From contig DASCQF010000009.1 of the NCBI GenBank assembly GCA_036012905.1, forward strand, positions 12,982 to 76,981: 64,000 bases of DNA, read 5' to 3'. Positions within the stretch are counted from its first letter, which is position 1, and the number at the start of each line of letters is the position of its first letter. Positions 32,125-57,929 of this stretch are shown one piece after another. The notes beneath the pieces are model-generated. The model saw only the letters and a program-made list of their open reading frames with translations, was not told the origin of the DNA and made no database searches. The translations under genes were made by a program, and so were the position numbers. The stretch comes from Vicinamibacterales bacterium. Its GTDB lineage: Bacteria > Acidobacteriota > Vicinamibacteria > Vicinamibacterales > UBA8438.

Positions 32125-34428
32125 TCAGCGCGGCTCGCCCAAGCGCACCGGCATCGTCATCGCCCCGTTGCCCGCCGAGTCCCAGGCGGCGAAGCGGACC
32201 CAGGCCTGTCCGGTCGCGTCGAACGGAACCGTGAAGGTCTCGTGGCCGAACGCCGGATGGTCCGTGGCCGAGAGGCGGTGGGTCGTCGTGCGCTCACCGT
32301 CACCGAAGACCACCTCGACGAACTCGAGTGGGAAGGTCCACTCGACCTCGGCGACCACCCGCATCCCGGCGTCACTTCCCTCGTAGCGGTGCGACGGGAT
32401 GAGCACCTCGCCCGAGGTGACGAAGTAGTCGCCGCGCTCGAGCACGTCGATGATCGGCGCATAGGCGCCCGGCGGGGGGAGCTCGTCAAGACGCAGGTAG
32501 CTCACCGGCCCGTTCGCGTAGACGTCGTCACCCGGAGCCTTGAAATAGGTCTCGGTGATGGCCAGCAGATACTTGGGGCGTTGCGACGTCCCCGCGACCC
32601 AGTTGTTCATGTCGTCGAGCAGCGGGATCACTCGCTTCCCGGACAACCGGATCTCCGACAGGTCGGACCCCATCCCCCACCGCCACCCCACGCCCCGATA
32701 CCGGTCGTCGAGAAACTGGGTCGTCTCCCGGATTGCATCCGGGTAGCCGGTCGAGCCCTTCGTGCGCGGATGCGGCATATAGACCAGCATGTCCTCCGCC
32801 GCGATCATCGCCATCATGTCGGCGACGCTACCGATGTTGTACATGCGGCCGTACTCGGGGTGCTCGGTCACGAGCGGGTTCCCCGCCGGGCGCGCGTCGA
32901 CGTAGTAGACCGGATGCGAGAACAGCAGGTCCCAGTGACCGCCGAGGAGATTGCTGTTCTCCATCTCGGGCAAGACCATGAAGGTCTCGTCGGAATGCCG
33001 CTCGGCGCCCTCAAAGAGCCAGCGCTGCTCCTCGAGCTGCGTGGCGTCCCGGGGCCGGTCGACCGGCCCGGCGATGTTGATTCCGGCGGCCCGGATGACC
33101 TCGAAGTCCGATAGGCGCGAATCGATGCTCCCGGTCGCCATCAACGACCGACCGAGGTTGGTGTGATAGTGGCTGCCCATCACTTGGTGGCCGGGCAGCG
33201 GGCGGTACACGTCGCCATTCGTGAAGGCGAGCGCCGCCTCGAACGCCCCGGAGTGGTCGCCCAGCGTCGGGTAGAAGTAGGCCGCCATGTGCTGCTCGGT
33301 ACCCGGCGGCGCGCTGTAGAGCGACCAGTTGGCGAGATACCGCTCGACCGCCTCCTGTTCGCCCTGGCGAACACCGATGCTGAACGACGCGTCGTCGTCC
33401 TTGCGATACCAGTTGTAGCCGACGTTGATCTCGACCTCCCGAGCCCAGAAGAACGTGTGCGGCGGCGGGAAGGCTGCAATGGCGGCGCCGTTTGTTTCCG
33501 CCACGACGAGGCGGTTCGCCGCCCGCAGGGTCACGGCGTCGGTGTTGGCCGGCCCCTTCAGCGAGTACGACTGCAGCTGGGTCGCGACATCGCGCCAGTA
33601 CACCGAGCTGTCGGGGCCGATATCGAGACCGGTGAGCCCCACGTCGTACTTGTAGGCGACCGAGGGCCGCTCGGTCGATGCGACCGCCTCGACGCGAATC
33701 AGGTTCGTGCCCTCGTGGACGCTCAGCACGAGCGCGCCCGAGAACGACCCGAGCGTCAAACCGGAAAAGGAGACGCTGAGCCGACGGCCCTCGGAACGGA
33801 CCGTACACGCGCTTGCGCGATAGCCCGCCGCGCCCCGCCGAATCTCGTCTGGCGAACGGGGCAGACCCGGCTGACCGGCGACACCTTCGGCTGGCGGGGG
33901 ATTCCCACCACCGACCTCCGCGCGCAGGTCGAGCGGCGCGTCCCAGAACACGTCCCACTTGTAGCGGTCCACGACCTCCTGGGTCAGCTCCACGTCCAAC
34001 CCACGAAGCGGCGCGAGCTGCTGATTGCTGATCCGTCGGAACCCCTCGACGATCTGGAAATCTATACTGAGATCCGTTGCGACCGGTGTCCACCTCGCCG
34101 AAGAGCCCGACCGCAGCGCCAGCTCGTCAATGACCGGCACACCCTGCCTGATCGCGAACCGCAGACGGACCCGCTCGCTCCCCGCGCCGGCCCATTCAAC
34201 GACCAGCTCGTCCCCCGAGACGCGTGCCACAGCACCGGACCTCCCCGTATACGCGCGCAGGTCGCATATCGACGTCGCAGGATTCGGCTGCGCACCGGCC
34301 TTCGAGGCCGCCGGCCCGAGCAGCATCACCGCCAGGCATGAAACTGACACCGGAAGCCGAAGCCACCAGCTGAGCACGAACGACTGGTTGACGCGCAGTG
34401 TCATGGGTGCCGACATCTTATCTCCCAC
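32125..34428 (-). CDS. large secreted protein of unknown function, His-motif family (paralog of 46675-48741)
   Basis: It has a signal peptide. It shares blocks with the paralog: HYH/HWH, GGHW and HPRTKGSTG(Y/F)PD. The C-terminal region is beta-rich. Confidence 0.7.
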   Translation of the reverse strand: MGDKMSAPMTLRVNQSFVLSWWLRLPVSVSCLAVMLLGPAASKAGAQPNPATSICDLRAYTGRSGAVARVSGDELVVEWAGAGSERVRLRFAIRQGVPVIDELALRSGSSARWTPVATDLSIDFQIVEGFRRISNQQLAPLRGLDVELTQEVVDRYKWDVFWDAPLDLRAEVGGGNPPPAEGVAGQPGLPRSPDEIRRGAAGYRASACTVRSEGRRLSVSFSGLTLGSFSGALVLSVHEGTNLIRVEAVASTERPSVAYKYDVGLTGLDIGPDSSVYWRDVATQLQSYSLKGPANTDAVTLRAANRLVVAETNGAAIAAFPPPHTFFWAREVEINVGYNWYRKDDDASFSIGVRQGEQEAVERYLANWSLYSAPPGTEQHMAAYFYPTLGDHSGAFEAALAFTNGDVYRPLPGHQVMGSHYHTNLGRSLMATGSIDSRLSDFEVIRAAGINIAGPVDRPRDATQLEEQRWLFEGAERHSDETFMVLPEMENSNLLGGHWDLLFSHPVYYVDARPAGNPLVTEHPEYGRMYNIGSVADMMAMIAAEDMLVYMPHPRTKGSTGYPDAIRETTQFLDDRYRGVGWRWGMGSDLSEIRLSGKRVIPLLDDMNNWVAGTSQRPKYLLAITETYFKAPGDDVYANGPVSYLRLDELPPPGAYAPIIDVLERGDYFVTSGEVLIPSHRYEGSDAGMRVVAEVEWTFPLEFVEVVFGDGERTTTHRLSATDHPAFGHETFTVPFDATGQAWVRFAAWDSAGNGAMTMPVRLGEPR

Positions 34429-38575: not shown

Positions 38576-39595
38576 ATGAGGCTCCGGATGCTTGCGGCGT
38601 CGGTCGCCGCGGGGGGGTGTCTGCTGGCGCTGGCCGCACCGGCCGCCGCACAGTGCGAGCCGGACGGCGACATCCAGTTCGTCTGTGGACCGATCAGCCC
38701 CGAGGATCTGGCGCGGGTCCCGAACACCCCCTGGGTCATCGTGGCGAGCTGGGAAGACGACGGCTACCTCTCGGCTGCCGACAGCCGCGACCACCATACC
38801 GTCCGGCTGTTCCAGACCGCCGCCTCGCGCGCCCGTCACGACCAGGGGACCTATGGCGCGTGTCCCGGCATGACGACAAACGGCTTCCGGGCACACGGCA
38901 TCAGCCTGCGTCCGGGGAGCGATAGCACCCATACGCTCTATGTGGTCCGGCACGGCGAGCGGGAAGCGGTCGAGGTGTTCGAGATCGACGCGCGTGGGGC
39001 CGAGCCGGGCCTGACCTGGACTGGCTGCGCCGTGGCGCCCGAGGGCCTCGGCCTGAACGCGGTGGTCGCGCTGCCCGACGGCGGATTCGCGGCGACAAGT
39101 CCTCGCACCAGCGACATCTGGGAATGGCACAGCGGCGACGGATGGGTACGGGTGCCCGGCAGCGAAGACATCGGTCCCAACGGATTGGAGATCTCAGCCG
39201 ACGGCCGGTGGTTCCTGGTGGCCGGCTATGCCAGCCAGTCGGTCATCCGGCTGTCGCGTGGGCAGACCCCGGTTCGAAAGGATACCGTCGAGGTCGGCTT
39301 CAACATCGACAACGTGCACTGGGCCCCAGACGGGACGCTGCTGGCGGCCGGTCACAACGCGCCGACGCGGAACCGGGTCGGCGAATGCATCGGGCGGCGC
39401 ACGTGCGAGGGGCTCACGACGCACGTGGCCCGGGTCGACACGCAGGCGCTCACCGCCCAGGAGATCTTCACCTACCCGACCGACGACAACCTGATTCTGG
39501 GCACGGTGGCGATCGAGGTCGGCGACGAGCTCTGGGTGGGCCAGGTCGCCGGCGGCACTCGCATCGCCCGTGTCTCGTTGCCGTCTCCACGGTAG
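38576..39595 (+). CDS. secreted six-bladed beta-propeller protein (SMP-30/gluconolactonase/arylesterase-like)
   Basis: It has a signal peptide and GPNGLEISADGRWFLVAGYASQSVIRL, the motif typical of SGL/paraoxonase-like propellers. The assignment is tentative. Confidence 0.55.
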   Translation: MRLRMLAASVAAGGCLLALAAPAAAQCEPDGDIQFVCGPISPEDLARVPNTPWVIVASWEDDGYLSAADSRDHHTVRLFQTAASRARHDQGTYGACPGMTTNGFRAHGISLRPGSDSTHTLYVVRHGEREAVEVFEIDARGAEPGLTWTGCAVAPEGLGLNAVVALPDGGFAATSPRTSDIWEWHSGDGWVRVPGSEDIGPNGLEISADGRWFLVAGYASQSVIRLSRGQTPVRKDTVEVGFNIDNVHWAPDGTLLAAGHNAPTRNRVGECIGRRTCEGLTTHVARVDTQALTAQEIFTYPTDDNLILGTVAIEVGDELWVGQVAGGTRIARVSLPSPR

Positions 39596-40676: not shown

Positions 40677-41717
40677 ATGAGAGCACAACCTGTCGCATTG
40701 GCACTGACGGCGCTTGTTTTTACGCTGCTCGCTGCAGGATCCGTCGCGGGTCAGACGCCGCCTCGGGCGGCCGATGGCCGGCCCGATCTGCAGGGCATCT
40801 GGGACTTCCGCACCATGACGCCGCTCCAGCGCCCGACTGACCTGGGCGACAAGGAATTTCTGACCCAAGAGGAAGCGGCTGCCCAGGAGGCACAAATCGC
40901 AGGGCGTCGCGCCCGCCTGCTCGAGCCGAGCGAGGTGCGAACCGAGCCGTTGCCGGCCGGTGGTGGAGGCCGCGCGGTTGGCGGCTACAACGATTTCTGG
41001 CTCGACTACGGCACCACCATCGTCGGCGATCGACGCACGTCCCTGATCATCGACCCGCCGGACGGTCGTCTTCCACCGCTGACATCCGAGGGTGAGGCGC
41101 TCCGGCAGGTCGGTTCACTCGTCGAGGACCTCCCGATCGCGCTGCCCGTCCGGGTCCGTAGCGCCGGGACAGGGGCCGACCGCCCAGAAGACCGCGGGCT
41201 CGCCGAGCGGTGTCTGGTCGGGTTCAACAGCGGACCGCCGATGATGCCGAGCGGCTACAACAACAACATGCAGCTGTTCCAGACCGCCGACACCGTCGTG
41301 ATTCTCAACGAGATGGTGCACGATCTGCGCGTTATTCCGCTCGACGGCCGGCCGCATCTTCCCGAGCACGTCCGCCAATGGGCGGGGAGCTCGCGTGGCC
41401 ACTGGGAGGGTGACACCCTGGTCGTCGAGACGACCAACCTGACCGACAAGATCGGGAGTTTCGACCCGTCGGCCACGACTGCCTTGGGCACGGGATTGAC
41501 GGTGTCGCTGACCGAGCGGTTCAGCCGGCAGGACGAGAATACGCTGCTCTACGAGTACACGGTAGACGACCCGGTCATCTTCACCCGGCCTTTCACCGTC
41601 GCGGTCCCGATGCGTCGGTCGGACGAGCCGATGTACGAGTACGCGTGCCACGAAGGGAACTACGGTCTGCTGAACATCCTGACCGGCGCCCGGGTCGCGG
41701 AGGTCGAATCCCGCTAA
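40677..41717 (+). CDS. secreted protein of unknown function, paralog 1 of 3 (family X)
   Basis: It has a signal peptide. It shares blocks with 43959-44963 and 45737-46678: PDLQG(I/V)W, GGYN, RRTSL(I/V)(I/V)DPP(D/E)G, NNNMQLFQT, RVIPLDG, GHWEGDTLVVET and YEYACHEGNY. Confidence 0.75.
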   Translation: MRAQPVALALTALVFTLLAAGSVAGQTPPRAADGRPDLQGIWDFRTMTPLQRPTDLGDKEFLTQEEAAAQEAQIAGRRARLLEPSEVRTEPLPAGGGGRAVGGYNDFWLDYGTTIVGDRRTSLIIDPPDGRLPPLTSEGEALRQVGSLVEDLPIALPVRVRSAGTGADRPEDRGLAERCLVGFNSGPPMMPSGYNNNMQLFQTADTVVILNEMVHDLRVIPLDGRPHLPEHVRQWAGSSRGHWEGDTLVVETTNLTDKIGSFDPSATTALGTGLTVSLTERFSRQDENTLLYEYTVDDPVIFTRPFTVAVPMRRSDEPMYEYACHEGNYGLLNILTGARVAEVESR

Positions 41718-42658
41718 CGGACCTCCCTGACAAAGGCTGGGACCCGGACGAGCACGTAGGTAATGTGCCCCCCGTCGGGCACCACGTAGCCGTGCGGGGT
41801 CCTGGCGGAAATGTGCAGCACGTCGCCTGCGGCCACCCGATGCCGCGTCCCACCGGAGATACCCGTACCCAGGCTCCCGGTGCGGTTGAGCATCTCGCCG
41901 CCCACCAGCAACTCCCCCTCGCCGCTCTTGATGAACACCACGTCGATGATGTCGTCGTGAATCTCGGGGCGCCCGTCCGCGTCCCGGTGAATGAAGCGGA
42001 AGCGGTGCGACCGCGTCGGACTGCCGTAGTCGGCGAGCGTCTCGCGTGAGGAGTGGTCTGGTCCCACCCGCGTGGCAAGGGACGCATCGCGACGCGCGAG
42101 ATCGGCATCGGTCCACATGGCGAATCCCGTCGGGTCGAAGTCGAGGTCCGGCGCGTCGGCAGGAATGACGGGCTCGCCCACGAGCGCCGGGAGCCGCACG
42201 AGCACATAGGTAATGTGGCCTCCGTCCGGCACCAAGTAGCGATGCGGTGTGTCGGCCGGGATGTGGATGACATCGCCAGGACCCACCCGATATCGCACTC
42301 CACTCGCGATGCCGGTACCCGTGTATTCGCCGTCGTCTCCCGTGCGGTCGACCATGTCTCCGCCTACCAGCAAGGTCCCTGCCCCGCTCTGTATGAAGAC
42401 GACGTCCTCGATCTGTTCATGCTGTTCGGGAACGCCGTCAGCGTCCCGATGAATGAACCGGAATCGATGGGCTCCGCTCGGGTTGCCATACTCGGCGAGG
42501 GTCTCGCGAGCAGAGTGGTCCGCGGCCACCCGCGCAGACAACGCAGCATCCCGCTGTTCCAGCTCCGACGCACTCCACATGACGAATCCCGGCGGGGCCG
42601 GCTGCAGCACGAGCGCAAGCACAGCGCCCACCAAGAAGAGACGAAGTGACACGATCAT
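41714..42658 (-). CDS. secreted bicupin (two tandem cupin domains)
   Basis: Two homologous halves each contain HRFRFIHRDADG.PE.H..I.DVVFI.SG.G.LLVGG.M and PDGGHITYVLVR.PA. Confidence 0.7.
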   Translation of the reverse strand: MIVSLRLFLVGAVLALVLQPAPPGFVMWSASELEQRDAALSARVAADHSARETLAEYGNPSGAHRFRFIHRDADGVPEQHEQIEDVVFIQSGAGTLLVGGDMVDRTGDDGEYTGTGIASGVRYRVGPGDVIHIPADTPHRYLVPDGGHITYVLVRLPALVGEPVIPADAPDLDFDPTGFAMWTDADLARRDASLATRVGPDHSSRETLADYGSPTRSHRFRFIHRDADGRPEIHDDIIDVVFIKSGEGELLVGGEMLNRTGSLGTGISGGTRHRVAAGDVLHISARTPHGYVVPDGGHITYVLVRVPAFVREVR

Positions 42659-43006
42659 CGCAAGCTCCTGTCAGCAAGTCGCCTGCCCTTCGAGAGCAGC
42701 TACGGCGAGAGCGCATAAATGTACACCCTCCTGGCGGTGCGACACCACGTGCACCGGCCCGGCGCCGCTCGGACACCCCGGATCGCCCGCTCGACGTCTC
42801 ACCGCGACCGGTCCACTCCGACGTTCAAGTCCGCGGCCCGGCGGCCGATTAAATACGCAGCACCACGCCCAGCCGCGCAGCGCGCATCACTGAGTAGGGC
42901 GCCAACAAGTAACACAGGAGCACATCGGAGAGGGGTCACGAATCAGGTAGCACCACACACCTCGTGACTTCTGGCGTCGACTCCGTCGGCGACGCGGAAC
43001 CAAGGC

Positions 43007-43846
43007 ATGGGCATCTCGGACAGCGACTTCAACTTCGTGCGCACCTTCATCCACAACCGGGCCGGAATCGTGCTCGAACCCGGCAAGGAGTATCTGGCCG
43101 ATGCGCGTCTCTCACCGCTCCTGCGGCAAAGCAGCTTCAAGAACCTGAGCGAGCTGGTGGCCGAGCTCCGGACCAACTCCTTTTCGCCATGGAACAGCAA
43201 GGTTGTTGACGTCCTCACCACGAACGAAACCAGCTTCTTCCGGGACCACGCACCGTTCGAGGCCCTGCGGACCTACGTGATTCCCGAGCTGATCGCGGCA
43301 CGTCGGTGCGAGAAACGGCTGAACATCTGGTATGCCGCCTCCTCCACCGGGCAGGAGCCCTACTCGGTGGCGATGCTGCTGGCCGAGCATATCCCGGAGC
43401 TGGCGACCTGGGACGTGTCGCATCTGGCGACCGACATTTCGACCGAGGCCCTCGACCGGGCCAGACAGGGCCGGTATGCGCAGTTCGAGACCAACCGCGG
43501 GCTACCGGCTACTTACCTCGAGAAGTACTTCGACCGGGACGGCCTGGAATGGGTGCTCAAAGACTACATTCGCAAGGCCGTGCGGTTCGAAGAGCTCAAT
43601 CTCAACAAAGCCTGGCCCGCGCTGCCGTCGATGGACATCGTCATGATGCGCAACGTCATGATCTACTTCGACCTCGAGAGCAAGCGTGACATTCTCGGGA
43701 AGGTCGCCCACCTCCTCCGCCCGGACGGCTGCCTCTTTCTGGGTGCGGCCGAGACGACGATGCATTTCGACGAGCGCTTCTCGCAGGCCAGGCGCGACCG
43801 GTCCGGCTGCTACCGGTGCGACATGCAATACAAACAGACCGGCTGA
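43007..43846 (+). CDS. cheR: CheR-type protein-glutamate O-methyltransferase
   Basis: The N-terminal helical domain reads FNFVRTFIHNRAGIVLEPGKEYL. It also has NETSFFRD and the SAM site IWYAASSTGQEPYSVAML...MRNVMIYFD. Confidence 0.85.
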   Translation: MGISDSDFNFVRTFIHNRAGIVLEPGKEYLADARLSPLLRQSSFKNLSELVAELRTNSFSPWNSKVVDVLTTNETSFFRDHAPFEALRTYVIPELIAARRCEKRLNIWYAASSTGQEPYSVAMLLAEHIPELATWDVSHLATDISTEALDRARQGRYAQFETNRGLPATYLEKYFDRDGLEWVLKDYIRKAVRFEELNLNKAWPALPSMDIVMMRNVMIYFDLESKRDILGKVAHLLRPDGCLFLGAAETTMHFDERFSQARRDRSGCYRCDMQYKQTG

Positions 43847-43958
43847 GCACCCCGACACACCGAACGAAGCCCTGCCGTCGTGCCACGTGTCATGATTCCC
43901 TGCGCGCCAGATTTGTCGTATCCTTCTCGCATCGGCCCGAACAGGAAGGAGAGACCCG

Positions 43959-44963
43959 ATGAGCGACAGGTTGCTGGCCTCGATTGGTCCGTTGGTGGCG
44001 TTGCTCGCTTTGGTCCCAGCCTCTGCGCTGAGCCAGACGAGCGCCGTTGGCGATTGGACGGCGCCGCAGACGCCGTGGGGTGAGCCCGACCTGCAAGGCG
44101 TGTGGACCTCGGCCACCCTCACACCGCTGGAGCGGCCGGGACGGCAGTCGGACAGAGCGGAGCTGACCGCAGAGGAAGCGGCGGCCGCGGAACGGCGGAC
44201 CATCGAGAACCGTGCGGCGAACGACGGGAAGTCCGCGCCCGGTAGTGTGGGCGGTTACAACCAGGTCTGGATGGACGCGGGCAGCGTGATTACCAAGAGC
44301 CGGCGCACATCGCTGATCGTCGACCCCCCGGAGGGCGTGATTCCGTGGAAGCCGGAGGCGAAGGAGGCGAGCGACCGCGAGCGGGCGCGTTACGGCGTCG
44401 GGCCGTTCGACACCTGGACCGACATGGACACCGGTGAGCGCTGCCTTACCGACGGCCTGCCGAATATGGTGCCGCTACAGCCCTACAACATGAATCTTCA
44501 GGTTCTGCAGACGCCCGGTGAAGTGGTGATGCTTCACGAGATGTACCACGAGCTCCGGGTCATCCCCCTCGACGGCCGGCCGTTGACCGGCATCGCCCAA
44601 TGGACCGGTGAGGCGCGCGGACACTGGGAAAGCGACACGCTGGTTGTGGAAACTGTCAACTTTGCAGACAGGCCGGATGCCTACTGGAGCGCGCCGTGGC
44701 GCAAGTCCCGCCCCAGCCTCCGTCTCGTCGAGCGCTTCACACGCGTCGGACCAGAGACGATCGACTATACCTTTACCCTAGAGGACCCACAGGTCTTCAC
44801 CCAGCCCTGGACCGCGGCTGCACCGATGACGACCGATCACGCGTCGCGCGGTGTCACATCTGGGCAGATCTGGGAGTACGCCTGCCACGAGCGCAACTAC
44901 TCGATGATCAATGTGCTGGGTGGCGCGCGCGCCGAGGAGGCCGCGGCAAGACGAGACGAGTAA
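43959..44963 (+). CDS. secreted protein of unknown function, paralog 2 of 3 (family X)
   Basis: It has a signal peptide and the same conserved blocks (PDLQGVW, GGYNQVW, RRTSLIVDPPEG, RVIPLDG, GHWESDTLVVET, WEYACHERNY). The RBS is AGGAAGGAG. Confidence 0.75.
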   Translation: MSDRLLASIGPLVALLALVPASALSQTSAVGDWTAPQTPWGEPDLQGVWTSATLTPLERPGRQSDRAELTAEEAAAAERRTIENRAANDGKSAPGSVGGYNQVWMDAGSVITKSRRTSLIVDPPEGVIPWKPEAKEASDRERARYGVGPFDTWTDMDTGERCLTDGLPNMVPLQPYNMNLQVLQTPGEVVMLHEMYHELRVIPLDGRPLTGIAQWTGEARGHWESDTLVVETVNFADRPDAYWSAPWRKSRPSLRLVERFTRVGPETIDYTFTLEDPQVFTQPWTAAAPMTTDHASRGVTSGQIWEYACHERNYSMINVLGGARAEEAAARRDE

Positions 44964-45736
44964 GGACTTCCCCGCCTCGCTTCCCTCCCACGACCGACCT
45001 GGCCGACGCCAGTGGATGACCCCGACTCCGCCCCCCGACCCCATCCACATGGGGTAACCAACCTCACGCCTGCTCGAAGCGCCCATTCAACTCAACCGGT
45101 GACACCGCGATGTGGGGCGATGACGGCGTCCATACTAGGGCGGGGGTGCGATATCTCACACCTTGCGTGAGCCATGCTTGGCGACGAGTGCTGCATGAGC
45201 AGCTGTGTGTGAATCAAGGCACTAGTTGATTTCATGCTATATACCTGCTATAAGCGTAGTACGAGTTAGAGCAAGTTGTCCGGGACCAGGCTGGGGCTGA
45301 GCACGAAGCCTGTCTGTCACGCATTGGCGACCACCGCCTTGGTGGCATTCGATGTGAACCTGTTCCTGGCGGCTGGGTGTGCGGGGAGGCGAGCAGGTTC
45401 GGGATTAGGACTTGGGGAAGGCCTATGCTACGTAACGCGTCCGTGTTGATTATCGACGACGAGGAGGTTGACCCGCCCCCTGCGGCCGTTCCACTTGTTA
45501 AGAGAGAGCGAAGTTCATATGTAGCCCGACGCCTGGTGCTGGCGTGACGGCCCGCCGGAGAGGCTAACACCTCCCATCGTGCCAGTGTCAACTCGACCGT
45601 GCCTGGTCGCAGCACGATCGCGTGCGGCTCCCGAGACCAGCCCTCACGGAACGCATTTCGACCAGCGGCCCGGCCGTGAGAGAATCATGACCATACAGAG
45701 GACGGCCGGTGCACAGGGCCGCCAAGGAGGATTGCC

Positions 45737-46678
45737 ATGAGCACGCGACACGGACGCGCGCAGTATATCGGTTCGGCCCTGTTGGGTGGGCTGTTGCTGG
45801 TGCCGACCCTCGCCGCCGGTCAGCAGAATGTGCGGGGTTTGCAGGGTGTGTGGGATTTCCGAAGTGTCGTGCCGTTCGAACGCCCCGAGGATCTCGCCGG
45901 GAAGGAGACCTTCACCGAAGAGGAGGCGGCCGCCTTCGAGCAACAGCGCGTCGACGAGCTCAACGTCGATCTGCGACGGGACGAAAACGGACGCGTCCCG
46001 CTCTCCGGAGGCTACAACAACTTCTGGTATGACCGTGGCACGTCCATCGGTGAGGAGCGTCGGACCTCGCTCGTCGTCGACCCACCCGACGGACGGATGC
46101 CGGCGCGGACGGACGCGGCACGGGAGCGGAACGCCGAACGAGGGAGACTCCTCGGACGCGACGCGCACGGACCTGAAGACCGGGGCGCGTTCGAGCGCTG
46201 CATCCTGGGCTTCAACTCGGGCCCCCCGATGAACCCGAGCGCCTACAACAACAACATGCAGCTGTTTCAGACCGACGATCACGTGGCGATCCTGAACGAA
46301 ATGGTGCACGACTCGCGTGTCATTCCGCTGGATGGGTCTGCGCATCTCCCCGACAGCGTCCGGCAGTGGATGGGTGACTCACGGGGGCACTGGGACGGCA
46401 ACACGCTGGTCGTCGAAACGAAGAACTTCACCAACAAGACCAGCTTCCGCGGGTCAGGCCCGAACATGCACCTGGTCGAGCGATTCACCAGGGCCGACGC
46501 CGACACGTTGGTCTACGAATACACAGTCACCGACCCGGAGTCGTTCGCGCGCCCCTGGTCGGCGCGAACCTTGATGAAGCGCTCGGACGCACCGGTCTAC
46601 GAGTACGCGTGCCACGAGGGCAACTATGGCATGGACAACCTGCTGGTCGCGGCCCGCGACGCTGAGCTGAAGCAATGA
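45737..46678 (+). CDS. secreted protein of unknown function, paralog 3 of 3 (family X)
   Basis: It has a signal peptide and the same conserved blocks, and is closest to paralog 1. The RBS is AAGGAGG. Its stop overlaps the next gene's start (ATGA at 46675-46678). Confidence 0.75.
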   Translation: MSTRHGRAQYIGSALLGGLLLVPTLAAGQQNVRGLQGVWDFRSVVPFERPEDLAGKETFTEEEAAAFEQQRVDELNVDLRRDENGRVPLSGGYNNFWYDRGTSIGEERRTSLVVDPPDGRMPARTDAARERNAERGRLLGRDAHGPEDRGAFERCILGFNSGPPMNPSAYNNNMQLFQTDDHVAILNEMVHDSRVIPLDGSAHLPDSVRQWMGDSRGHWDGNTLVVETKNFTNKTSFRGSGPNMHLVERFTRADADTLVYEYTVTDPESFARPWSARTLMKRSDAPVYEYACHEGNYGMDNLLVAARDAELKQ

Positions 46679-48741
46679 CCCGTTCCGCCGCGACGCTCGC
46701 AGCCGCCGGGCGGGCGCTCGGTGGTGTTCTGCTGGTTGCCGGCGCCGCCGCCGGGGCCACCGTTCCGCTCGATACGAGCGGCGTGCGTCCCGGCCCGGTG
46801 ACGGTCACCGAACAGGGCGACACCGTGGTCGTCGCCTGGCCCGACGAGACGGGGCGCCCCTGGCGAGCAACATTTTCGCTCGACCCGGAGCGTCCGCTCA
46901 TTCAGTCGATCGCGGTGAACGGCGCCTCGATCGTGTCCAACGCCCGCCCGTACTACCGAGGCGAAACGGGGACGCGGCGACGCGGCTGGAACGCCTTCTT
47001 CGACTACCCCCCGGACCATCCCGACGGCACCCGCGCCGCACAGGGCCGCTTCCAGTTGCGCACGGCGACGGTCCGCACGCTCGGCGACCGGGTCGAGCTG
47101 CTGTTCGACGGGTTGCAGATGGGCGTGTTCGACGGCGGGATCGCCTACACCGTCTACCCCGGCAGCCGCCTGATCCAGCAAGAGGCGGTCGTCACCACCT
47201 CCCAGCCCGATGTCGCCTACTACTACGACGCAGGGTGGGACATGACGGCCGCCGCGGACCGAACGCCCGGGAACAACATGGAGACCCGGGTCAGCTACTA
47301 CGACACCAGCGGATCGCTCCGGCATGACACGGCGACCGGGTTCGACCCGGAGCGCGTGCCGGTGGAAGTGCGCTACCGCACGCTGGCGATGGACACCGAG
47401 CGCGGCAGCGTGGCGGTCTTTCCCGCCCCGCACCAGTACTTCTTTCCCCGGGACTTCACCTCGAACCTGGGGCAGCTCTGGCACCGGTCGTGGCGGGGCC
47501 GCGTATCGCTCGGGATCAGGCAGATTCGCGACACCAACTGGCGCTTCTATCCCTGGATGAACGCGCCGCCAGGCCAGATGCAGCGGATGTCGGTGTTCTT
47601 CCTGCTGTCAGACGCGGGGTCGACCGAGACGCTCGACGACGTGCTGGCCTTCACCAATCGCGACCGGTTCCGTCCGATCGCCGGGTACAAGACCCTGAGC
47701 ACCCACTGGCATCTGGCGTATACCGTGCAGGCGCTCGAGCACGGCTTCGACTGGACGCCGCCGTTCAAGCCGGTGCTGAAAGCGATGGGGGTCGACGCGT
47801 CGATCATCATGGACTTCCATGGCGACGGGCATCCGCGAGACCTGACCGACCTGCGGCTCGACGAGCTCGACGCCTACTTCACGGCGCTGCGGGCACAATC
47901 GGAGCCGGACTTCCTGCTCATTCCGAGCGAGGAAGCCAACGTCCACTTCGGCGGGCACTGGGCGCTGGTGTTTCCGAAACCGGTCTACTGGTTCATGGGG
48001 CGTCCAGAGGGCACCCTATTCGAGACGACCCACCCGAAGTACGGCACCGTCTACAGTACGGCAGATGCCGCCGAGCTCCTCGAGCTGGTGCGTCGCGAGG
48101 GGGGTGTCATGTATCAGACGCATCCCCGAACCAAGGGCTCGACCGGCTTTCCGGACCGGATCGCCGAAACCGACCACTTCCAGGATCCGGCGTATCTTGG
48201 CGCCGGCTGGAAAGCGATGCCGTCGGACCCCTCGTCCCCGCGGCTGGGCGAGCGGTCGCTGACGCTGCTCGATGACTTGAGCGCGCAGGGCATCCGGAAA
48301 CAGATCTTCGGCGAGGTCGACGTGTTCCAGTTCGACGAGACACACGAGCTCTACGCCCACATGAACATCAACTACATCCGCCTCGACGCGCTGCCGCCGT
48401 TCGACCGGTGGAACGAGGCGGTCGAGCCGCTGGCCCGCGGGGATTTCTTCACCACGACCGGCGAGGTGCTGCTTCCGCAGGTCGATCTGTCGACCTCCAG
48501 TGATGACCGGATTCAGGCGCGAGTCGCGGTCGACTGGACTTTCCCGCTGCGCTTCGCCGAGATCGTCTGGGGCGCGGGCGATCAGATCCACCGCGAGACG
48601 ATTCCGCTCGCCGACACGCGCCCCTTCGGCGCCGAAACGTTCGAGTGGGCGGTCGACGCCGCCGGATGGGACTGGGCGCGGGTAGCCGTGTGGGACGTCG
48701 CCGCCAATGGCGCGTTCGTCAACCCGACCTGGCGGGACTGA
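46675..48741 (+). CDS. large secreted protein of unknown function, His-motif family (paralog of 32125-34428)
   Basis: It has a signal-like N-terminus. Shared blocks are THWH, FGGHWALVFPKPVYW and YQTHPRTKGSTGFPD. It is translationally coupled to family X paralog 3. Confidence 0.7.
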   Translation: MTRSAATLAAAGRALGGVLLVAGAAAGATVPLDTSGVRPGPVTVTEQGDTVVVAWPDETGRPWRATFSLDPERPLIQSIAVNGASIVSNARPYYRGETGTRRRGWNAFFDYPPDHPDGTRAAQGRFQLRTATVRTLGDRVELLFDGLQMGVFDGGIAYTVYPGSRLIQQEAVVTTSQPDVAYYYDAGWDMTAAADRTPGNNMETRVSYYDTSGSLRHDTATGFDPERVPVEVRYRTLAMDTERGSVAVFPAPHQYFFPRDFTSNLGQLWHRSWRGRVSLGIRQIRDTNWRFYPWMNAPPGQMQRMSVFFLLSDAGSTETLDDVLAFTNRDRFRPIAGYKTLSTHWHLAYTVQALEHGFDWTPPFKPVLKAMGVDASIIMDFHGDGHPRDLTDLRLDELDAYFTALRAQSEPDFLLIPSEEANVHFGGHWALVFPKPVYWFMGRPEGTLFETTHPKYGTVYSTADAAELLELVRREGGVMYQTHPRTKGSTGFPDRIAETDHFQDPAYLGAGWKAMPSDPSSPRLGERSLTLLDDLSAQGIRKQIFGEVDVFQFDETHELYAHMNINYIRLDALPPFDRWNEAVEPLARGDFFTTTGEVLLPQVDLSTSSDDRIQARVAVDWTFPLRFAEIVWGAGDQIHRETIPLADTRPFGAETFEWAVDAAGWDWARVAVWDVAANGAFVNPTWRD

Positions 48742-50109: not shown

Positions 50110-52086
50110 TTAGGGCAGACTCAGCGCGACGAGTCCAGGCACCTCACCGCCGATCGTCAGCGAGATGTACTGCTTGCCCTCGTACATGTAGGTCATCGGC
50201 GTACCGATGGCGCCGGCCGTGAGATCGATGGAACCGACGACCTCGCCGCTCGCCTTGTCGCGCGCCACTAGACGCGGCCCGCCGTTCGATCCGCCGGCCG
50301 AGAGCGCGCTGACGAGTAGCGTCTTCGTCAGCACCGGTCCGCCCCGTCCCTCGCCGCCCAGCGGCGGCAAGTCGAGGTCGCGCAACGCCGGGTGGTTCCG
50401 GAGTCGGTCGCCGTCACCGTTCGGCTGCATCCAGGCGTGCTCGCCTTCGTTGAGATCGATGGCGGTGATCCGGGAGTAGGGCGGCTTGAACAGTGGCAGC
50501 CCCTGCGGCATCCTCGGCTGCTGCCCGCTGCCGAACTCGCTCTGCGTGAAGCGGAGGTTACCGCCTTCTGCCGGGTCGGGCGTGTAGTACTTCAGGACCG
50601 AGAAGCTGTTCGACGACGGCACATACAAGGTGCCCGTCTCCGGGTCTGCCGCCGAGCCGGCCCAGGTCGCGGAACCGCCGATCTGGGGACGCTGGATCGT
50701 TCCCTGCAGGCCGCCGTCGACACTCAGCATCGGCGGGGTGAACAGTGGCCCGAGCCGGAAGTTCTTGACCACCTCGACCGCCATCGCCCGGATCTCCGGT
50801 GTGAAGTCGACCAGGTCATCGATGGTGACCCCCTGGTAGTCGAACGGGGGTGGCTTGGTCGGAAACGGCTGCGTCGGCGAGAGGACGTCGCCCTCCAGGT
50901 CGGTGTCGGTCTCCACCGGTCGCTCCTCGATCGGCCACACGGGGTCGCCCGTCACCCGGTCAAAGACGTAGGTGAACGCCTGCTTGCTGACCTGCGCGAT
51001 CGCCTTGATGGGGCGACCGTCGACCGTGATGTCGATGAGGCTCGGCGCCGCCGGGAAGTCGTAGTCCCAGACGCCATGGTGCACCGCCTGAAAGTGCCAC
51101 ATACGTTGTCCCGTCGCGGTGTCGACGGCGACGAGACTCTCGGCGAAGAGGTTGTCACCCAGACGGTGCCCGCCGTAGTAGTCGCTGGTGGGCGTGCCGG
51201 TCGGAAGAAAGACGTAGCCGGTCTCGTCGTCTGCGGCCATCGGCGGCCAGACGTTCACGTTGCCCGAGTAGCGCCACGATTCGTTCAGCCAGGTGTCGGC
51301 GCCGAAGTCGTCGCCGCTGGGCACCGTCCGGAAGGTCCACTTCGTGTCGCCGGTGCGGGCGTCCACGCCCTTGATCCATCCCGGCGGCGCCTCCTTGCGG
51401 ACGACGAAGTCGGAGATGATCGTCGGCGTGACCACGATGTCGCCCACGACGACGGGCGGCGACTTGACCCCGAGCAGGACGCGCCCCTGATAATTCGTCT
51501 CGCCCCGCGCAGCGCGTGGAATGCCCTCGGTCAGGTCGACCCGGCCGTTGTCGCCGAAGCCGGGTACGGGTCGCCCGGTGGCGGCATCGACCGCGTGCAG
51601 GTACCCCTCGCTGGTGCCCCAGAAGATGCGCGCCTCCTCGTCGTCGGACCAGTAAGCGATGCCGCGTGACCCGTAGCCGTGGGTCGGCTCGCCACCGCTA
51701 TAGACTTCCGGGTCGTATACCCAGAGTGTTTGGCCTGTGCCGGCGTCGATCGCGGCCACCTGATACATCGCAGTCGACAGATAGAGCACGCCGTCGACCA
51801 TCAGGGGGGTCGCCTGGAGGCCCCGGATCGACACCCCCTGCCGCTGCTCGCGCAGCGCCTCGAGATCGAGCGCGCCGTCGGCCGATTCCCAGCTCCACGC
51901 GACGCGCAGGTCGTCGAAGTTGGTCGCGTCGACCTGATCCAGCGGCGAGTATTTCGTCCCGCCGTTGTCGCCGCCGTAGTAGCGCCATTCGCCGTCGGTG
52001 GCGCCATACTGGGCCAGCGCCGGGCTCGAACAGAGCAGAACCGCGCACCAGGTCACGGCATAGACCAGGCACTGTCGGATCGTCAT
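50110..52086 (-). CDS. soluble periplasmic PQQ-dependent dehydrogenase (eight-bladed propeller quinoprotein), paralog 1
   Basis: It has a signal peptide. The N-terminal quinoprotein pattern is EWRYYGGDNGGTKYSPLDQVDATNFDDLRVAW. Repeated W-docking blades are present, along with DNLFAESLVAVD..TGQRMWHFQAVHHGVWDYD. Confidence 0.85.
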   Translation of the reverse strand: MTIRQCLVYAVTWCAVLLCSSPALAQYGATDGEWRYYGGDNGGTKYSPLDQVDATNFDDLRVAWSWESADGALDLEALREQRQGVSIRGLQATPLMVDGVLYLSTAMYQVAAIDAGTGQTLWVYDPEVYSGGEPTHGYGSRGIAYWSDDEEARIFWGTSEGYLHAVDAATGRPVPGFGDNGRVDLTEGIPRAARGETNYQGRVLLGVKSPPVVVGDIVVTPTIISDFVVRKEAPPGWIKGVDARTGDTKWTFRTVPSGDDFGADTWLNESWRYSGNVNVWPPMAADDETGYVFLPTGTPTSDYYGGHRLGDNLFAESLVAVDTATGQRMWHFQAVHHGVWDYDFPAAPSLIDITVDGRPIKAIAQVSKQAFTYVFDRVTGDPVWPIEERPVETDTDLEGDVLSPTQPFPTKPPPFDYQGVTIDDLVDFTPEIRAMAVEVVKNFRLGPLFTPPMLSVDGGLQGTIQRPQIGGSATWAGSAADPETGTLYVPSSNSFSVLKYYTPDPAEGGNLRFTQSEFGSGQQPRMPQGLPLFKPPYSRITAIDLNEGEHAWMQPNGDGDRLRNHPALRDLDLPPLGGEGRGGPVLTKTLLVSALSAGGSNGGPRLVARDKASGEVVGSIDLTAGAIGTPMTYMYEGKQYISLTIGGEVPGLVALSLP

Positions 52087-52165: not shown

Positions 52166-54163
52166 CTATGGGAGCGCCAGCGCGATCAATTCCGGAACCT
52201 CGCCGCCCACTGTCAGGGCGATGTGCTGTCTGCCGTCGAGCATGTAGGTCATCGGCGTGCCGATCGCGCCGCCGGGCAGGCCGACCGAGGCGAGAATCTC
52301 GCCGGTGGCCTTGTCCCGCGCCACGAGACGCGGACCGTCGTCGGCGCCTCCGGCCGTGAGCGCGCTCACCAGCAGCGTCTTGGTCAGCAGCGGTCCGCCC
52401 CGCCCGTCGCCGCCGAGGGGCGGCAAGTCGAGGTCGCGCAGCAGCGGGTGGTTGCGAAGCCGGTTGCCGTCGCCGTTGGGCTGCATCCAGGCGTGCTCAC
52501 CGGCATTGAGGTCGATGGCGGTCATGCGGGTGTAGGGCGGCTTGAGCAGCGGGAGGCCCTGCGGCATCTGCGGCTGCACGCCGGCCGCGAGCCCGCGGAA
52601 CGTGTACCGGAGGTTGCCGCCGTCGACCGAGTCCGGCGTGTAGTACTTGAGCACCGAGAACCTGTTCAGCGACGGCACGTACAGGAGACCGGTCTCCGGA
52701 TCGACGGCGGCCCCGCTCCAGTTCGCGCCGCCGCCGACATAGGGACGCTGAATCGTCCCGTGTAGCCCTCCGTCGGCGCTCAGCATCGGCGGCGAGAAGA
52801 GCGGCCCGAGCCGAAAGTCCTTGACCGCTTCGACCGCCATCGCCCGGATCTCCGGGGTGAAATCGACCAGGTCGTCGATGGTCACGCCCTGATACTCGAA
52901 CGGCGGGGGCTTGGTCGGGAACGGCTGGGTCGGCGACAGCACTTCGCCCTCCAGGTCGCTGTCGGTCGCGACCGGCCGCTCCTCGATCGGCCAGACCGGA
53001 TCGCCGGTGACGCGGTCGAAGACGTAGGTGAAACCTTGCTTGCTAACCTGGGCGAGCGCCTTCACCGGGCGGCCGTCCACCGTGATGTCGACCAGGTTGG
53101 GCGCGGCGGGGAAGTCGTAGTCCCAGACCCCGTGATGCACCGCCTGGAAGTGCCACATCCTCTGGCCGGTCTCGATGTCGAGCGCGACGACGCTCTCGGC
53201 GAAGAGGTTGTCGCCCAGACGGTGGCCGCCGTAGTAGTCGCCCGTCGGCGTCCCGGTCGGCAGATAGACGTAGCCGAGCTCGTCGTCGACGCTGAGGAAC
53301 GACCACACGTTGGTGTTACCAGAGTAGCGCCACGACTCGTTCTGCCAGCTGTCTGCACCGAAGTCGTCAGCCTGCGGCACGGTGCGGAACATCCACTTCG
53401 TATCGCCGGTGCGCGCGTCGACCCCCCTGACCCACCCGGGCGGGGCTTCCTTCTTGATCGCACTATCCGAGATGACCGACGGTGTGACGACGACGTCGTG
53501 GGCGACGATCGGCGGCGAGGCCACACCGATCAGATTGCGGCCGTTGTAGTTCGTCTCTCCGCGCACGGCGCGGGGAATGCCCTCCATCAGGTCGACACGA
53601 CCGTCGATCCCGAACTCGCGCACGGGTTGTCCGGTGTCGGCATCGAGCGCGAGCAGATAGCCCCCATGCGTGCCGAAGAAGATCCGCGCGTCATTGGGGT
53701 CTTCGTCGTCTTCCCAGTAGGCGACTCCGCGCGAGTTGTAGAAGTGTGTCGGTTGCCCCTCCAGGTAGTACTCCGGGTTGTGGACCCAGAGCGTCTCTCC
53801 CGTGCCGGCATCGATCGCGGCCACCTGTTGCAGCGCCGTCGAGATATACAGCACGCCGTCGACCATCAGGGGCGAGGCCTGGAACATCCGAAACTGAATA
53901 CGCGGCACCTGTTCCCGGATCGCCTCCATGTCGAGCGAGGCGTCCACCGTCTGCCAGCGCCAGGCCATGCGCAGGTCGCCGAAGTTCGCCGCGTCGATCT
54001 GATCCAGCGGTGAGTACTTGGTGCTACCCAGATCGCCCCCATAGCTCCGCCACTCGCCGTTCGTGGCGCCGTACTGGGCCAGGCCCAGGGCCGGCCACAG
54101 CAGCACCGCGCAACAGCAGGCGGCACAGACAAGGAATGAACTCGGACTCGGCATCCTTGGCAT
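52166..54163 (-). CDS. soluble periplasmic PQQ-dependent dehydrogenase, paralog 2 (tandem with paralog 1)
   Basis: It is collinear with paralog 1 along its whole length, with long identical blocks such as HFQAVHHGVWDYDFPAAP, FTYVFDRVTGDPVWPIEERPV and LSPTQPFPTKPPPF. Confidence 0.85.
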   Translation of the reverse strand: MPRMPSPSSFLVCAACCCAVLLWPALGLAQYGATNGEWRSYGGDLGSTKYSPLDQIDAANFGDLRMAWRWQTVDASLDMEAIREQVPRIQFRMFQASPLMVDGVLYISTALQQVAAIDAGTGETLWVHNPEYYLEGQPTHFYNSRGVAYWEDDEDPNDARIFFGTHGGYLLALDADTGQPVREFGIDGRVDLMEGIPRAVRGETNYNGRNLIGVASPPIVAHDVVVTPSVISDSAIKKEAPPGWVRGVDARTGDTKWMFRTVPQADDFGADSWQNESWRYSGNTNVWSFLSVDDELGYVYLPTGTPTGDYYGGHRLGDNLFAESVVALDIETGQRMWHFQAVHHGVWDYDFPAAPNLVDITVDGRPVKALAQVSKQGFTYVFDRVTGDPVWPIEERPVATDSDLEGEVLSPTQPFPTKPPPFEYQGVTIDDLVDFTPEIRAMAVEAVKDFRLGPLFSPPMLSADGGLHGTIQRPYVGGGANWSGAAVDPETGLLYVPSLNRFSVLKYYTPDSVDGGNLRYTFRGLAAGVQPQMPQGLPLLKPPYTRMTAIDLNAGEHAWMQPNGDGNRLRNHPLLRDLDLPPLGGDGRGGPLLTKTLLVSALTAGGADDGPRLVARDKATGEILASVGLPGGAIGTPMTYMLDGRQHIALTVGGEVPELIALALP

Positions 54164-57381: not shown

Positions 57382-57593
57382 CACAACGTCCCCTTCAGCA
57401 CATCGTGCCGAATAGATCCGAACCGACCTGAATTGACCCGATCTGACAGTGCCCCGTATGGTGACCGATTCAGGCCGGGAGACCAAGGCGGGAATGGCAC
57501 CAATCTGGGTAGCACTCAATTCCCCTTGCTTACCGAGTGGAGCCGTGTTACGCTGACTCATATCGGTAACCGAGAGATGAAGCGATTCACACA

Positions 57594-57929
57594 ATGAGCA
57601 AACCATCTGATCTCGTGCAGGGCACACTCGACCTGCTGATACTCAAGATTCTCGCCCTCGAGCCGCTCAACGGCTGGGCGATCGGGCAGCGGCTCAAGCA
57701 GGTCTCGGACGACGTGCTCCAGGTCAGCGACGGGTCGCTGTATCCGGCGCTGCACAAGCTGGAGCACCAAGGCTTGATTGTGTCTGAATGGCGGCGCAGC
57801 GAGAACAACCGTCGCGCCAAGTTCTACGAGTTGACCCGGCCCGGCCGGGGCCATCTCGACCAGGAGACCGCACAGTGGATGCGGCTCTCCGCCGCCATCT
57901 CGCAGGTCGTCAGTCTCGAGGAGCTCTGA
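57594..57929 (+). CDS. PadR-family transcriptional regulator
   Basis: The winged-helix pattern is GTLDLLILKILALEPLNGWAIGQRL...SDGSLYPALHKLEHQGLI...RRAKFYELT. Confidence 0.9.
   Translation: MSKPSDLVQGTLDLLILKILALEPLNGWAIGQRLKQVSDDVLQVSDGSLYPALHKLEHQGLIVSEWRRSENNRRAKFYELTRPGRGHLDQETAQWMRLSAAISQVVSLEEL

Follow-up and report, generated by a model that had tools for sequence, protein, structure and literature searches.

Calycins are proteins built around an antiparallel up-and-down barrel of eight to ten strands that encloses a ligand cavity, and some of them are enzymes. A similar barrel, of about 115 to 150 residues, is predicted for the secreted protein family described here, which is represented by three genes in a 64,000-nucleotide stretch of contig DASCQF010000009.1 (GenBank assembly GCA_036012905.1) from a Vicinamibacterales bacterium; this whole stretch is called the window below, and positions are counted from its first letter. 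That the three proteins belong to a real, exported and calycin-like family is very probable. As regards their role, we propose, with a probability of roughly 55%, that they are periplasmic, disulfide-stapled and cofactor-poor calycin-like enzymes or tight ligand-processing proteins, while the narrower claim that they process a ligand rather than passively carry it is tentative and falls somewhat short of even odds.

Paralog 1 (40677..41717, plus strand) encodes a putative exported calycin-like barrel protein of 346 aa belonging to the unnamed family, as indicated by its open reading frame (ORF), independent gene calls, more than 8000 homologs and an AlphaFold2 (AF2) model. Paralog 2 (43959..44963, plus strand, 334 aa), defined by its ORF and by alignments, is the most divergent copy, with 41 to 44% identity to the other two, and paralog 3 (45737..46678, plus strand, 313 aa), defined by its ORF and by AF2, is the most compact one and the source of the best model. 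These ORFs, with the same coordinates and lengths, had been listed in the original prediction, made from the letters of the window, and both an ORF check and independent gene calls agreed with it. Furthermore, the gene models of the three paralogs and of a downstream 688-aa protein, as well as their neighbourhood, are identical on independent metagenome contigs carrying an identical protein. Pairwise identity among the paralogs amounts to 44 to 58% in a three-way alignment and to 41 to 55% in a larger one, and tblastn across the window gave E values of 1e-55 to 1e-100 between copies and no fourth copy. Since these values are accompanied by thousands of homologs, the similarity lies far beyond chance, and the three genes are real, diverged paralogs of one family.

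The signal-peptide N-termini announced for all three proteins were found again on inspection by eye: a basic stretch and a hydrophobic core precede small residues at positions -3 and -1, which are followed by a Gln. In particular, a Sec-type signal peptide is predicted for residues 1 to 25 of paralog 1 (40677..40751, plus strand; SVAG|Q), and its equivalents on the same strand would occupy about 43959-44033 in paralog 2 and 45737-45820 in paralog 3, with cleavage-type sites VAG|Q in paralog 1, ASA/ALS|Q in paralog 2 and AAG|Q in paralog 3. Neither a twin-arginine (Tat) motif nor a lipobox Cys is present in the three N-termini (MRAQPVAL, MSDRLLAS and MSTRHGRAQY, with no RR pair). The family is thus most likely exported through the Sec route, with about 300 mature residues, and would reside in the periplasm.

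No named domain had been assigned to these proteins at the outset, and this view stood up to profile searches. Pfam-A (2025) returned no match for the three proteins at strict thresholds, nor for 60 family members at E values up to 10, a search that covered the curated calycin families (Lipocalin, Lipocalin_2-5, FABP and others); NCBIfam (r20) contained no model matching the family; and PDB sequence searches with 3-sequence and 145-sequence profiles were likewise negative. A confident hidden Markov model (HMM) match to a characterised domain, which had been named as the finding that would remove the novelty of the family, did not turn up. Two word-indexed homolog searches each scored at least 8000 candidates, and when 1.84 billion cluster representatives were searched exhaustively with a HMMER profile, 23,008 clusters (50% identity) came up at E≤1e-3, 11,452 of which reach E≤1e-10 and 2,344 E≤1e-30. 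All members are named "hypothetical protein" by their sources, except for one sub-branch fused to a Lipocalin_5 domain, which is named "lipocalin-like domain-containing protein". The closest 80 loci in species-representative genomes are mostly from Vicinamibacterales, with several genomes recurring, and also include Bryobacterales, Solibacteraceae and marine Gammaproteobacteria (Pseudohongiella, Porticoccaceae); a 49%-identical member on a contig labelled "MAG: Klebsiella pneumoniae" (L036, CAMCRC010000007.1) probably reflects a mis-binned or mislabelled contig. More distant relatives of 250 to 300 aa (E values of about 1e-17 to 1e-23 against the family HMM), again with no Pfam match, are carried by megaplasmids of cultured sphingomonads. 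Fusion partners (squalene-cyclase-like, NHL, Lipocalin_5, DUF3471) are rare and heterogeneous and were discarded as a functional clue, most of the "long" members being over-extended ORF calls. The family is therefore very large, unnamed and genuinely undescribed, with a core fold of a known kind.

Every conserved block listed in the original prediction occurs in each copy, namely LQG(I/V)W, GGYNxxW, RRTSLxxDPP(D/E)GxxP, YN(N/M)N(M/L)Qx(F/L)QT, EMxH(D/E)xRVIPLDG, GHW(E/D)xxTLVVETxN and EYACHE(G/R)NY, with the single correction that the "PD" placed before the first block is missing from paralog 3 (RGLQGVW); two further blocks, ERC and ERF(S/T)R, can be added. Conservation was assessed on 137 to 139 diverse representatives, 39 to 64% identical to paralog 1, whose numbering is used here. 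About 60 positions are conserved in at least 80% of them, many being Glu, Arg, His, Asn or Tyr, and the indels cluster in a single loop, which lies between DPPDG and ERC. The residues conserved throughout the superfamily are E212, R218, W243, E280, R281, E321 and E/Q326, in addition to a Cys pair, and E212, R218, E280, R281 and E321 persist out to relatives with E values of about 1e-17. H215 (82%), H325, N328 and the whole N-terminal half (GGYNxFW, RRTSLxxDPPDG) are restricted to the subfamily of the window proteins. On the plus strand, the EMxH(D/E)xRVIPLDG block, with the universal E212 and R218 and the subfamily residue H215, maps to 41310..41348 in paralog 1, 44538-44576 in paralog 2 and 46298-46336 in paralog 3, and the GHWEGDTLVVETxN block, with the universal W243 and forming two predicted barrel strands, maps to 41397..41438, 44619-44660 and 46385-46426, respectively.

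The Cys-His-Glu motif near the C terminus had been suggested to ligate a metal or a haem, an idea that the distribution of the cysteines does not sustain. Each window paralog contains two Cys in total, about 145 residues apart: the invariant Cys179 of the ERC block (41211..41213 in paralog 1, 44442-44444 in paralog 2 and 46199-46201 in paralog 3, plus strand), which is the proposed disulfide partner, and Cys324 of the EYACHEGNY block (41637..41663, 44874-44900 and 46601-46627, plus strand). C179 is kept in 100% of 137 representatives and in the sphingomonad relatives, and C324 in about 100% wherever the C terminus is present in the sequence; counting beyond residue 30, exactly two Cys occur in 120/137 members and an even number in 134/137. 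In the sphingomonad relatives, both Cys are kept and the residue after the second one is L, S or R, not His. Moreover, neither CXXCH nor a related haem-attachment motif is found in the three paralogs, none of them carries a Tat motif, and no cytochrome Pfam match was obtained for the window proteins and the 60 members. Because the two Cys co-occur, are found in even numbers and outlive the His in distant relatives, a structural disulfide between the ERC and ACHE cysteines is the favoured interpretation, and we consider it probable.

A first AF2 model, of paralog 1 with 60 sequences, was mediocre (predicted local distance difference test, pLDDT, 68.9). With an alignment of 145 sequences, built after a third homolog search that started from a divergent member, paralog 3 was modelled with a pLDDT of 84.6 and a predicted template modelling score (pTM) of 0.82. 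The model has a short N-terminal strand (LQGVW), after which conserved loops connect helices at residues 61-75, 89-94 and 126-140; an uninterrupted run of eight antiparallel strands (173-283) comes next, and then the ACHEGNY segment and a C-terminal helix (295-312). The LQGVW, GGYNxFW, RRTSLxxDPPDG and ERC blocks are held by a family-specific N-terminal helix and loop region of about 140 residues. When both models were compared with the PDB by Foldseek, the barrel alone aligned, and the top matches were all calycin-type barrels: tardigrade SAHS, CRBP1, FABP4, CRABP2, UnaG, nitrophorins, streptavidin, NanoLuc and OlmO. The structural signature of calycins is a G-x-W on the first strand, packed against a basic residue of the last one; reminiscent of its G-x-W, G40 and W42 are conserved (96% and 88%) on the short N-terminal strand, and the family also has conserved Arg residues. 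Modelling thus shows the core as a predicted eight-strand antiparallel, calycin-like (FABP/lipocalin-type) barrel, and the modelled full-length architecture has no solved analogue by Foldseek against the PDB. To our knowledge, the invariant Glu/Arg set of the family has not been described in calycin families. The Lipocalin_5 domain (PF13924) that is fused to the C terminus of one sub-branch (P0295, P0395-P0425) is missing from the window proteins, and homology of the barrel to it was rejected, hhalign giving a probability of 2 to 4%; in the fused sub-branch, the family domain and Lipocalin_5 presumably work together.

The genomic context of the family was sampled in 81 genome loci, taking about 8 kb on each side of a family gene. 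Between two and six copies within 8 kb are found in 37/79 loci, many in same-strand tandem with gaps of 1 to 100 nt. The original prediction had placed the copies among periplasmic redox enzymes, which is only loosely true, and had proposed a check for co-occurrence, which holds regionally, with pyrroloquinoline quinone (PQQ)-dependent dehydrogenases. The latter, the only widely recurring foreign neighbour, occur in 19 to 20 of the 81 loci, and in just about 10 of these are they adjacent on the same strand. Their coding sequences make up 4.4% of all flanking DNA, 5 to 6% within 2 kb and 2.4 to 4% at 4 to 8 kb. As this share declines only mildly with distance (about 1.5- to 2-fold), the link is regional and not a fixed operon. 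The idea of a strict operon partnership was therefore rejected: the two kinds of gene are co-enriched regionally, in islands that encode secreted enzymes. In the window itself, the immediate neighbours of the paralogs are ThuA-like, bicupin, CheR and cyclase genes. Other recurrent neighbours are serine and metallo beta-lactamase-fold hydrolases, a pair formed by a DUF1592/DUF1588 cytochrome and DUF1552, ankyrin proteins, DUF5916 (8/81 loci, plus the window), BamB-like propellers, CaiB-type CoA transferases and amidases; most neighbours are secreted enzymes. Literature searches combining Vicinamibacteria with PQQ, or lipocalin-like, periplasmic and PQQ, returned nothing relevant.

A tighter association was found with the small proteins of the DUF6152 family (PF19649). 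Like the calycin-like fold, the partnership with DUF6152 and DUF6644 does not feature in the original prediction. A DUF6152 gene encoding about 130 aa lies directly downstream of a family gene in about eight acidobacterial genome loci and in every sphingomonad context examined; in N. humi the two genes overlap by 4 nt, in Sphingobium TomTYG65 homolog and DUF6152 genes form alternating pairs, and in Croceibacterium and in PP1Y they stand beside TonB-dependent receptors. Examples of DUF6152 genes are those at 7456-7839 in L086, 5850-6653 in L087, 7568-7981 and 8816-9226 in L088 and 9441-9884 in L046 (coordinates of each locus). For a reciprocal test, 80 metagenome loci (L090-L169) were chosen by DUF6152 alone, in a scan made with three sequences: a family match occurs anywhere in the locus in 70/80, and in 49 (83%) of the 59 loci having at least 500 bp upstream, a family member on the same strand ends less than 400 bp before the DUF6152 gene. 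The gaps range from -4 to about 100 nt, and the exact window motif EYACHEGN is found in 24/60 DUF6152-paired members. His215, His242 and His325 were rejected as determinants of the pairing, their residue distributions being the same in paired and unpaired members. Membrane proteins of the DUF6644 family (PF20349) are the third recurrent component in both phyla, DUF6152 often being followed by two of them; they are weakly DUF2214-like, and a relationship with CopD is unsupported, the matches being to DUF2214 and weak. No paper on DUF6152/PF19649 or DUF6644/PF20349 was found in a literature search. On plasmid Mpl of Novosphingobium sp. PP1Y (L089, 652000-672000), genes for two TonB-dependent receptors enclose those of two distant family relatives and two DUF6152 proteins; next to them are folate-dependent (purU/metF-like) genes and one for a ring-cleavage dioxygenase of the LigB type, an aromatic-catabolism neighbourhood. 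Similarity to DUF6152 or DUF6644 is found nowhere in the window, whose three copies are stand-alone members that have either lost or never had this partnership.

In the reading that we favour, that of a disulfide-stapled enzyme or ligand-processing protein, the ERC-ACHE disulfide would tether the C-terminal segment to the N-terminal part of the protein, and E212, R218, E280, R281, E321, E326 and W243, together with the subfamily residues H215, H325 and N328, would build one polar site at the barrel. This site would bind, and probably transform, a small polar or amphipathic molecule. Its specificity may be set by the loop from DPPDG to ERC, where the indels are found, which would explain the tandem amplification. 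The protein would share a compartment with the secreted hydrolases and PQQ dehydrogenases encoded in its genomic islands. In one lineage of the family, it forms an operon with DUF6152 and the DUF6644 membrane proteins. We prefer an enzymatic role to those of a carrier, a metal protein or a haem protein because the invariant positions are polar and kept in distant relatives, because the indels sit in one loop and because the neighbours are mostly catabolic periplasmic enzymes.

Several observations weigh against this reading. Most calycins are binding proteins and not enzymes, and the family has no homolog of characterised function. The Foldseek matches are weak, with a best E value of 7e-4 (ranging to 1e-2) and template modelling scores of 0.43 to 0.5 normalised on the target and about 0.24 on the query, and the alignment spans just about 115 to 150 residues. 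The ACHEGNY segment is the least confident part of the paralog 3 model (pLDDT about 56), structural salt bridges could account for the conserved Glu-Arg pairs, the signal peptides were recognised by eye only, and the context associations are loose, that with DUF6152 excepted.

Among the alternatives, the one that survives best is that of a non-catalytic periplasmic carrier of a small hydrophobic or amphipathic ligand, whose carboxylate would be gripped by Arg, shuttling it from outer-membrane importers (TonB-dependent receptors, DUF5916) to periplasmic enzymes or to the inner-membrane DUF6644. The best structural matches are indeed ligand carriers (SAHS, CRBP1, FABP4, CRABP2, UnaG), the importers in question are found beside the sphingomonad relatives and in the DUF5916-bearing loci mentioned above, window included, and both the operon link to DUF6644 and the fusion to a second lipocalin-like domain fit such a role. 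However, conservation of the invariant acidic and basic residues goes far beyond what is usual in carrier calycins, nothing in carriers corresponds to the large and conserved N-terminal elaboration, and no transporter gene is consistently adjacent in the acidobacterial loci, so that we regard a pure carrier as unlikely.

It is also possible to hypothesize that the family handles a metal such as copper, through M213, H215, H325, E212 and E326 and possibly the cysteines, and that, together with DUF6152 and DUF6644, it takes up or delivers the metal in the manner of CopC/CopD. Of the metal idea initially attached to the Cys-His motif, this is the closest version still standing. Its appeal comes from DUF6152, which is almost always paired with the family and in which the predicted site of signal-peptide cleavage always reads A|H-H, with D35, H55 (in NPH), W73 and E76 invariant as well. 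A His exposed at the N terminus by signal-peptide cleavage is a metal site in CopC, YcnI and lytic polysaccharide monooxygenases, and by this analogy the His-His of DUF6152 suggests a metal site as well. The weak DUF2214 likeness of DUF6644 and the TonB-dependent receptors of the sphingomonads point the same way, and ZinT/YodA is a calycin-like periplasmic zinc binder. On the other hand, H215 and H325 are not superfamily-wide, the paired members including a sub-branch with N/G at position 215 and V/I throughout at position 325; the universal residues are Glu and Arg, which is no classical copper set, and the Cys statistics fit a disulfide. Moreover, DUF6644 has no CopD match and the window lacks both partners; metal handling by the family itself is, in our view, quite improbable. 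A carrier of haem, attached or ligated at Cys-His, or of another redox cofactor, accepting electrons from the PQQ dehydrogenases nearby, is hardly credible: nitrophorins are haem-binding calycins, cytochrome c genes occur near some paired loci and PQQ dehydrogenases recur as described, but the nearest partner for the Cys is some 145 residues away with no CXXCH, export is of the Sec type, His325 is not universal, and the PQQ enrichment is regional and mildly graded, most family genes having no such neighbour.

Around the paralogs, other genes of the window deserve a description. The ATGA at 46675-46678 joins the TGA of paralog 3 to the ATG of an ORF for a 688-aa exported protein (46675..48741, plus strand), as the original prediction had noticed. 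This protein is a paralog of a 767-aa one (32125-34428, minus strand), with 34% identity over about 590 aa and signal-peptide-like N-termini in both. Neither has a Pfam or PDB match, and the C-terminal half of the 688-aa protein gave a sub-threshold NCBIfam match to CehA/McbA, a PHP-type metallohydrolase (43.9 bits against a cutoff of 80); the two are possibly PHP-type hydrolases of a second unnamed secreted family. The co-occurrence of this second family with the calycin-like one, which the original prediction had proposed to check, was not borne out, since it is present in 1/81 loci and is not adjacent there; it was consequently rejected as a conserved partner, and the translational coupling is a local feature of the window. 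Paralogs 2 and 3 are separated by an unusually long (774-bp) gap at 44964-45736, in which we found no credible ORF, no remnant of the family, DUF6152 or DUF6644, no Rfam match and no likeness to related loci; the region as a whole has no Rfam element, and promoter and terminator consensus matches do not rise above background. The gap may hold the promoter of the operon of paralog 3 and the 688-aa gene.

A secreted-looking double-cupin protein with two Cupin_2 stretches (41714-42658, minus strand) converges on paralog 1, the stop codons overlapping within 41714-41717. At 43007-43846 (plus strand), a complete CheR-type chemotaxis methyltransferase gene stands alone among genes for secreted proteins, with no other chemotaxis gene among the neighbours scanned. 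A secreted-looking 339-aa protein (38576-39595, plus strand) has no Pfam or NCBIfam match, and its orthologs, 57 to 60% identical, lie near family genes in two other loci (L011, L069). The window also contains three PQQ-dependent dehydrogenases (50110-52086, 52166-54163 and 55318-57627, all on the minus strand; Pfam PQQ E values of about 1e-183 to 1e-189). All three show W-D-Y-D, with an Asp two residues past the catalytic Asp, which is the signature of lanthanide-dependent XoxF/PedH-type enzymes in the literature, and none has CXXCH.

The family comprises more than 23,000 clusters at 50% identity and is often present in several copies in the genomes of Acidobacteriota that are abundant in soil and sea. 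It has no name, no Pfam or NCBIfam model and no structure, and we suggest that it merits a Pfam entry and a structure determination. Defining it would give an identity to a large group of "hypothetical proteins" in environmental genomes, would reveal a new way in which the calycin barrel has been elaborated and would offer a first functional handle on DUF6152 and DUF6644. Uncharacterised secreted families are common, and nothing yet points to a mechanism that would surprise specialists. The paired module is present in cultured, genetically tractable sphingomonads (Novosphingobium, Sphingobium, Croceibacterium), which makes it directly testable. A more far-reaching proposal, which we consider unlikely, is that the family is the signature component of an undescribed three-part periplasmic system, extending from Acidobacteriota to Sphingomonadales and made of the calycin-like protein, DUF6152 with a His-His metal site at its N terminus, and DUF6644. 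Depending on a metal, possibly copper, this system would take up small molecules or process them oxidatively, and the massively amplified stand-alone copies of Vicinamibacterales, the three window genes among them, would form a new class of periplasmic enzymes, cofactor-independent or metal-dependent, with a calycin scaffold.

Compared with known systems, DUF6152 and DUF6644 are partners of the family and not homologs of it, and this module, both of whose components are uncharacterised, spans Acidobacteriota and Sphingomonadales. Its layout resembles that of the copper-handling CopC/CopD (with YcnI/YebY) operons, in which genes for a small secreted protein bearing an N-terminal His and for a small polytopic membrane protein are likewise accompanied by one for an additional periplasmic protein; the resemblance is an analogy only, with no sequence relationship to these systems or to ZinT/YodA and no CopC, CopD or ZinT match. 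With the calycins, the family has its predicted barrel in common, even though no sequence or profile similarity to calycin Pfam families is detectable and the structural scores are weak. Different from calycins, the proteins of this family are about twice the size, their putative barrel lies between a conserved N-terminal region of about 140 residues and a helix near the C terminus, and they carry a pair of conserved Cys.

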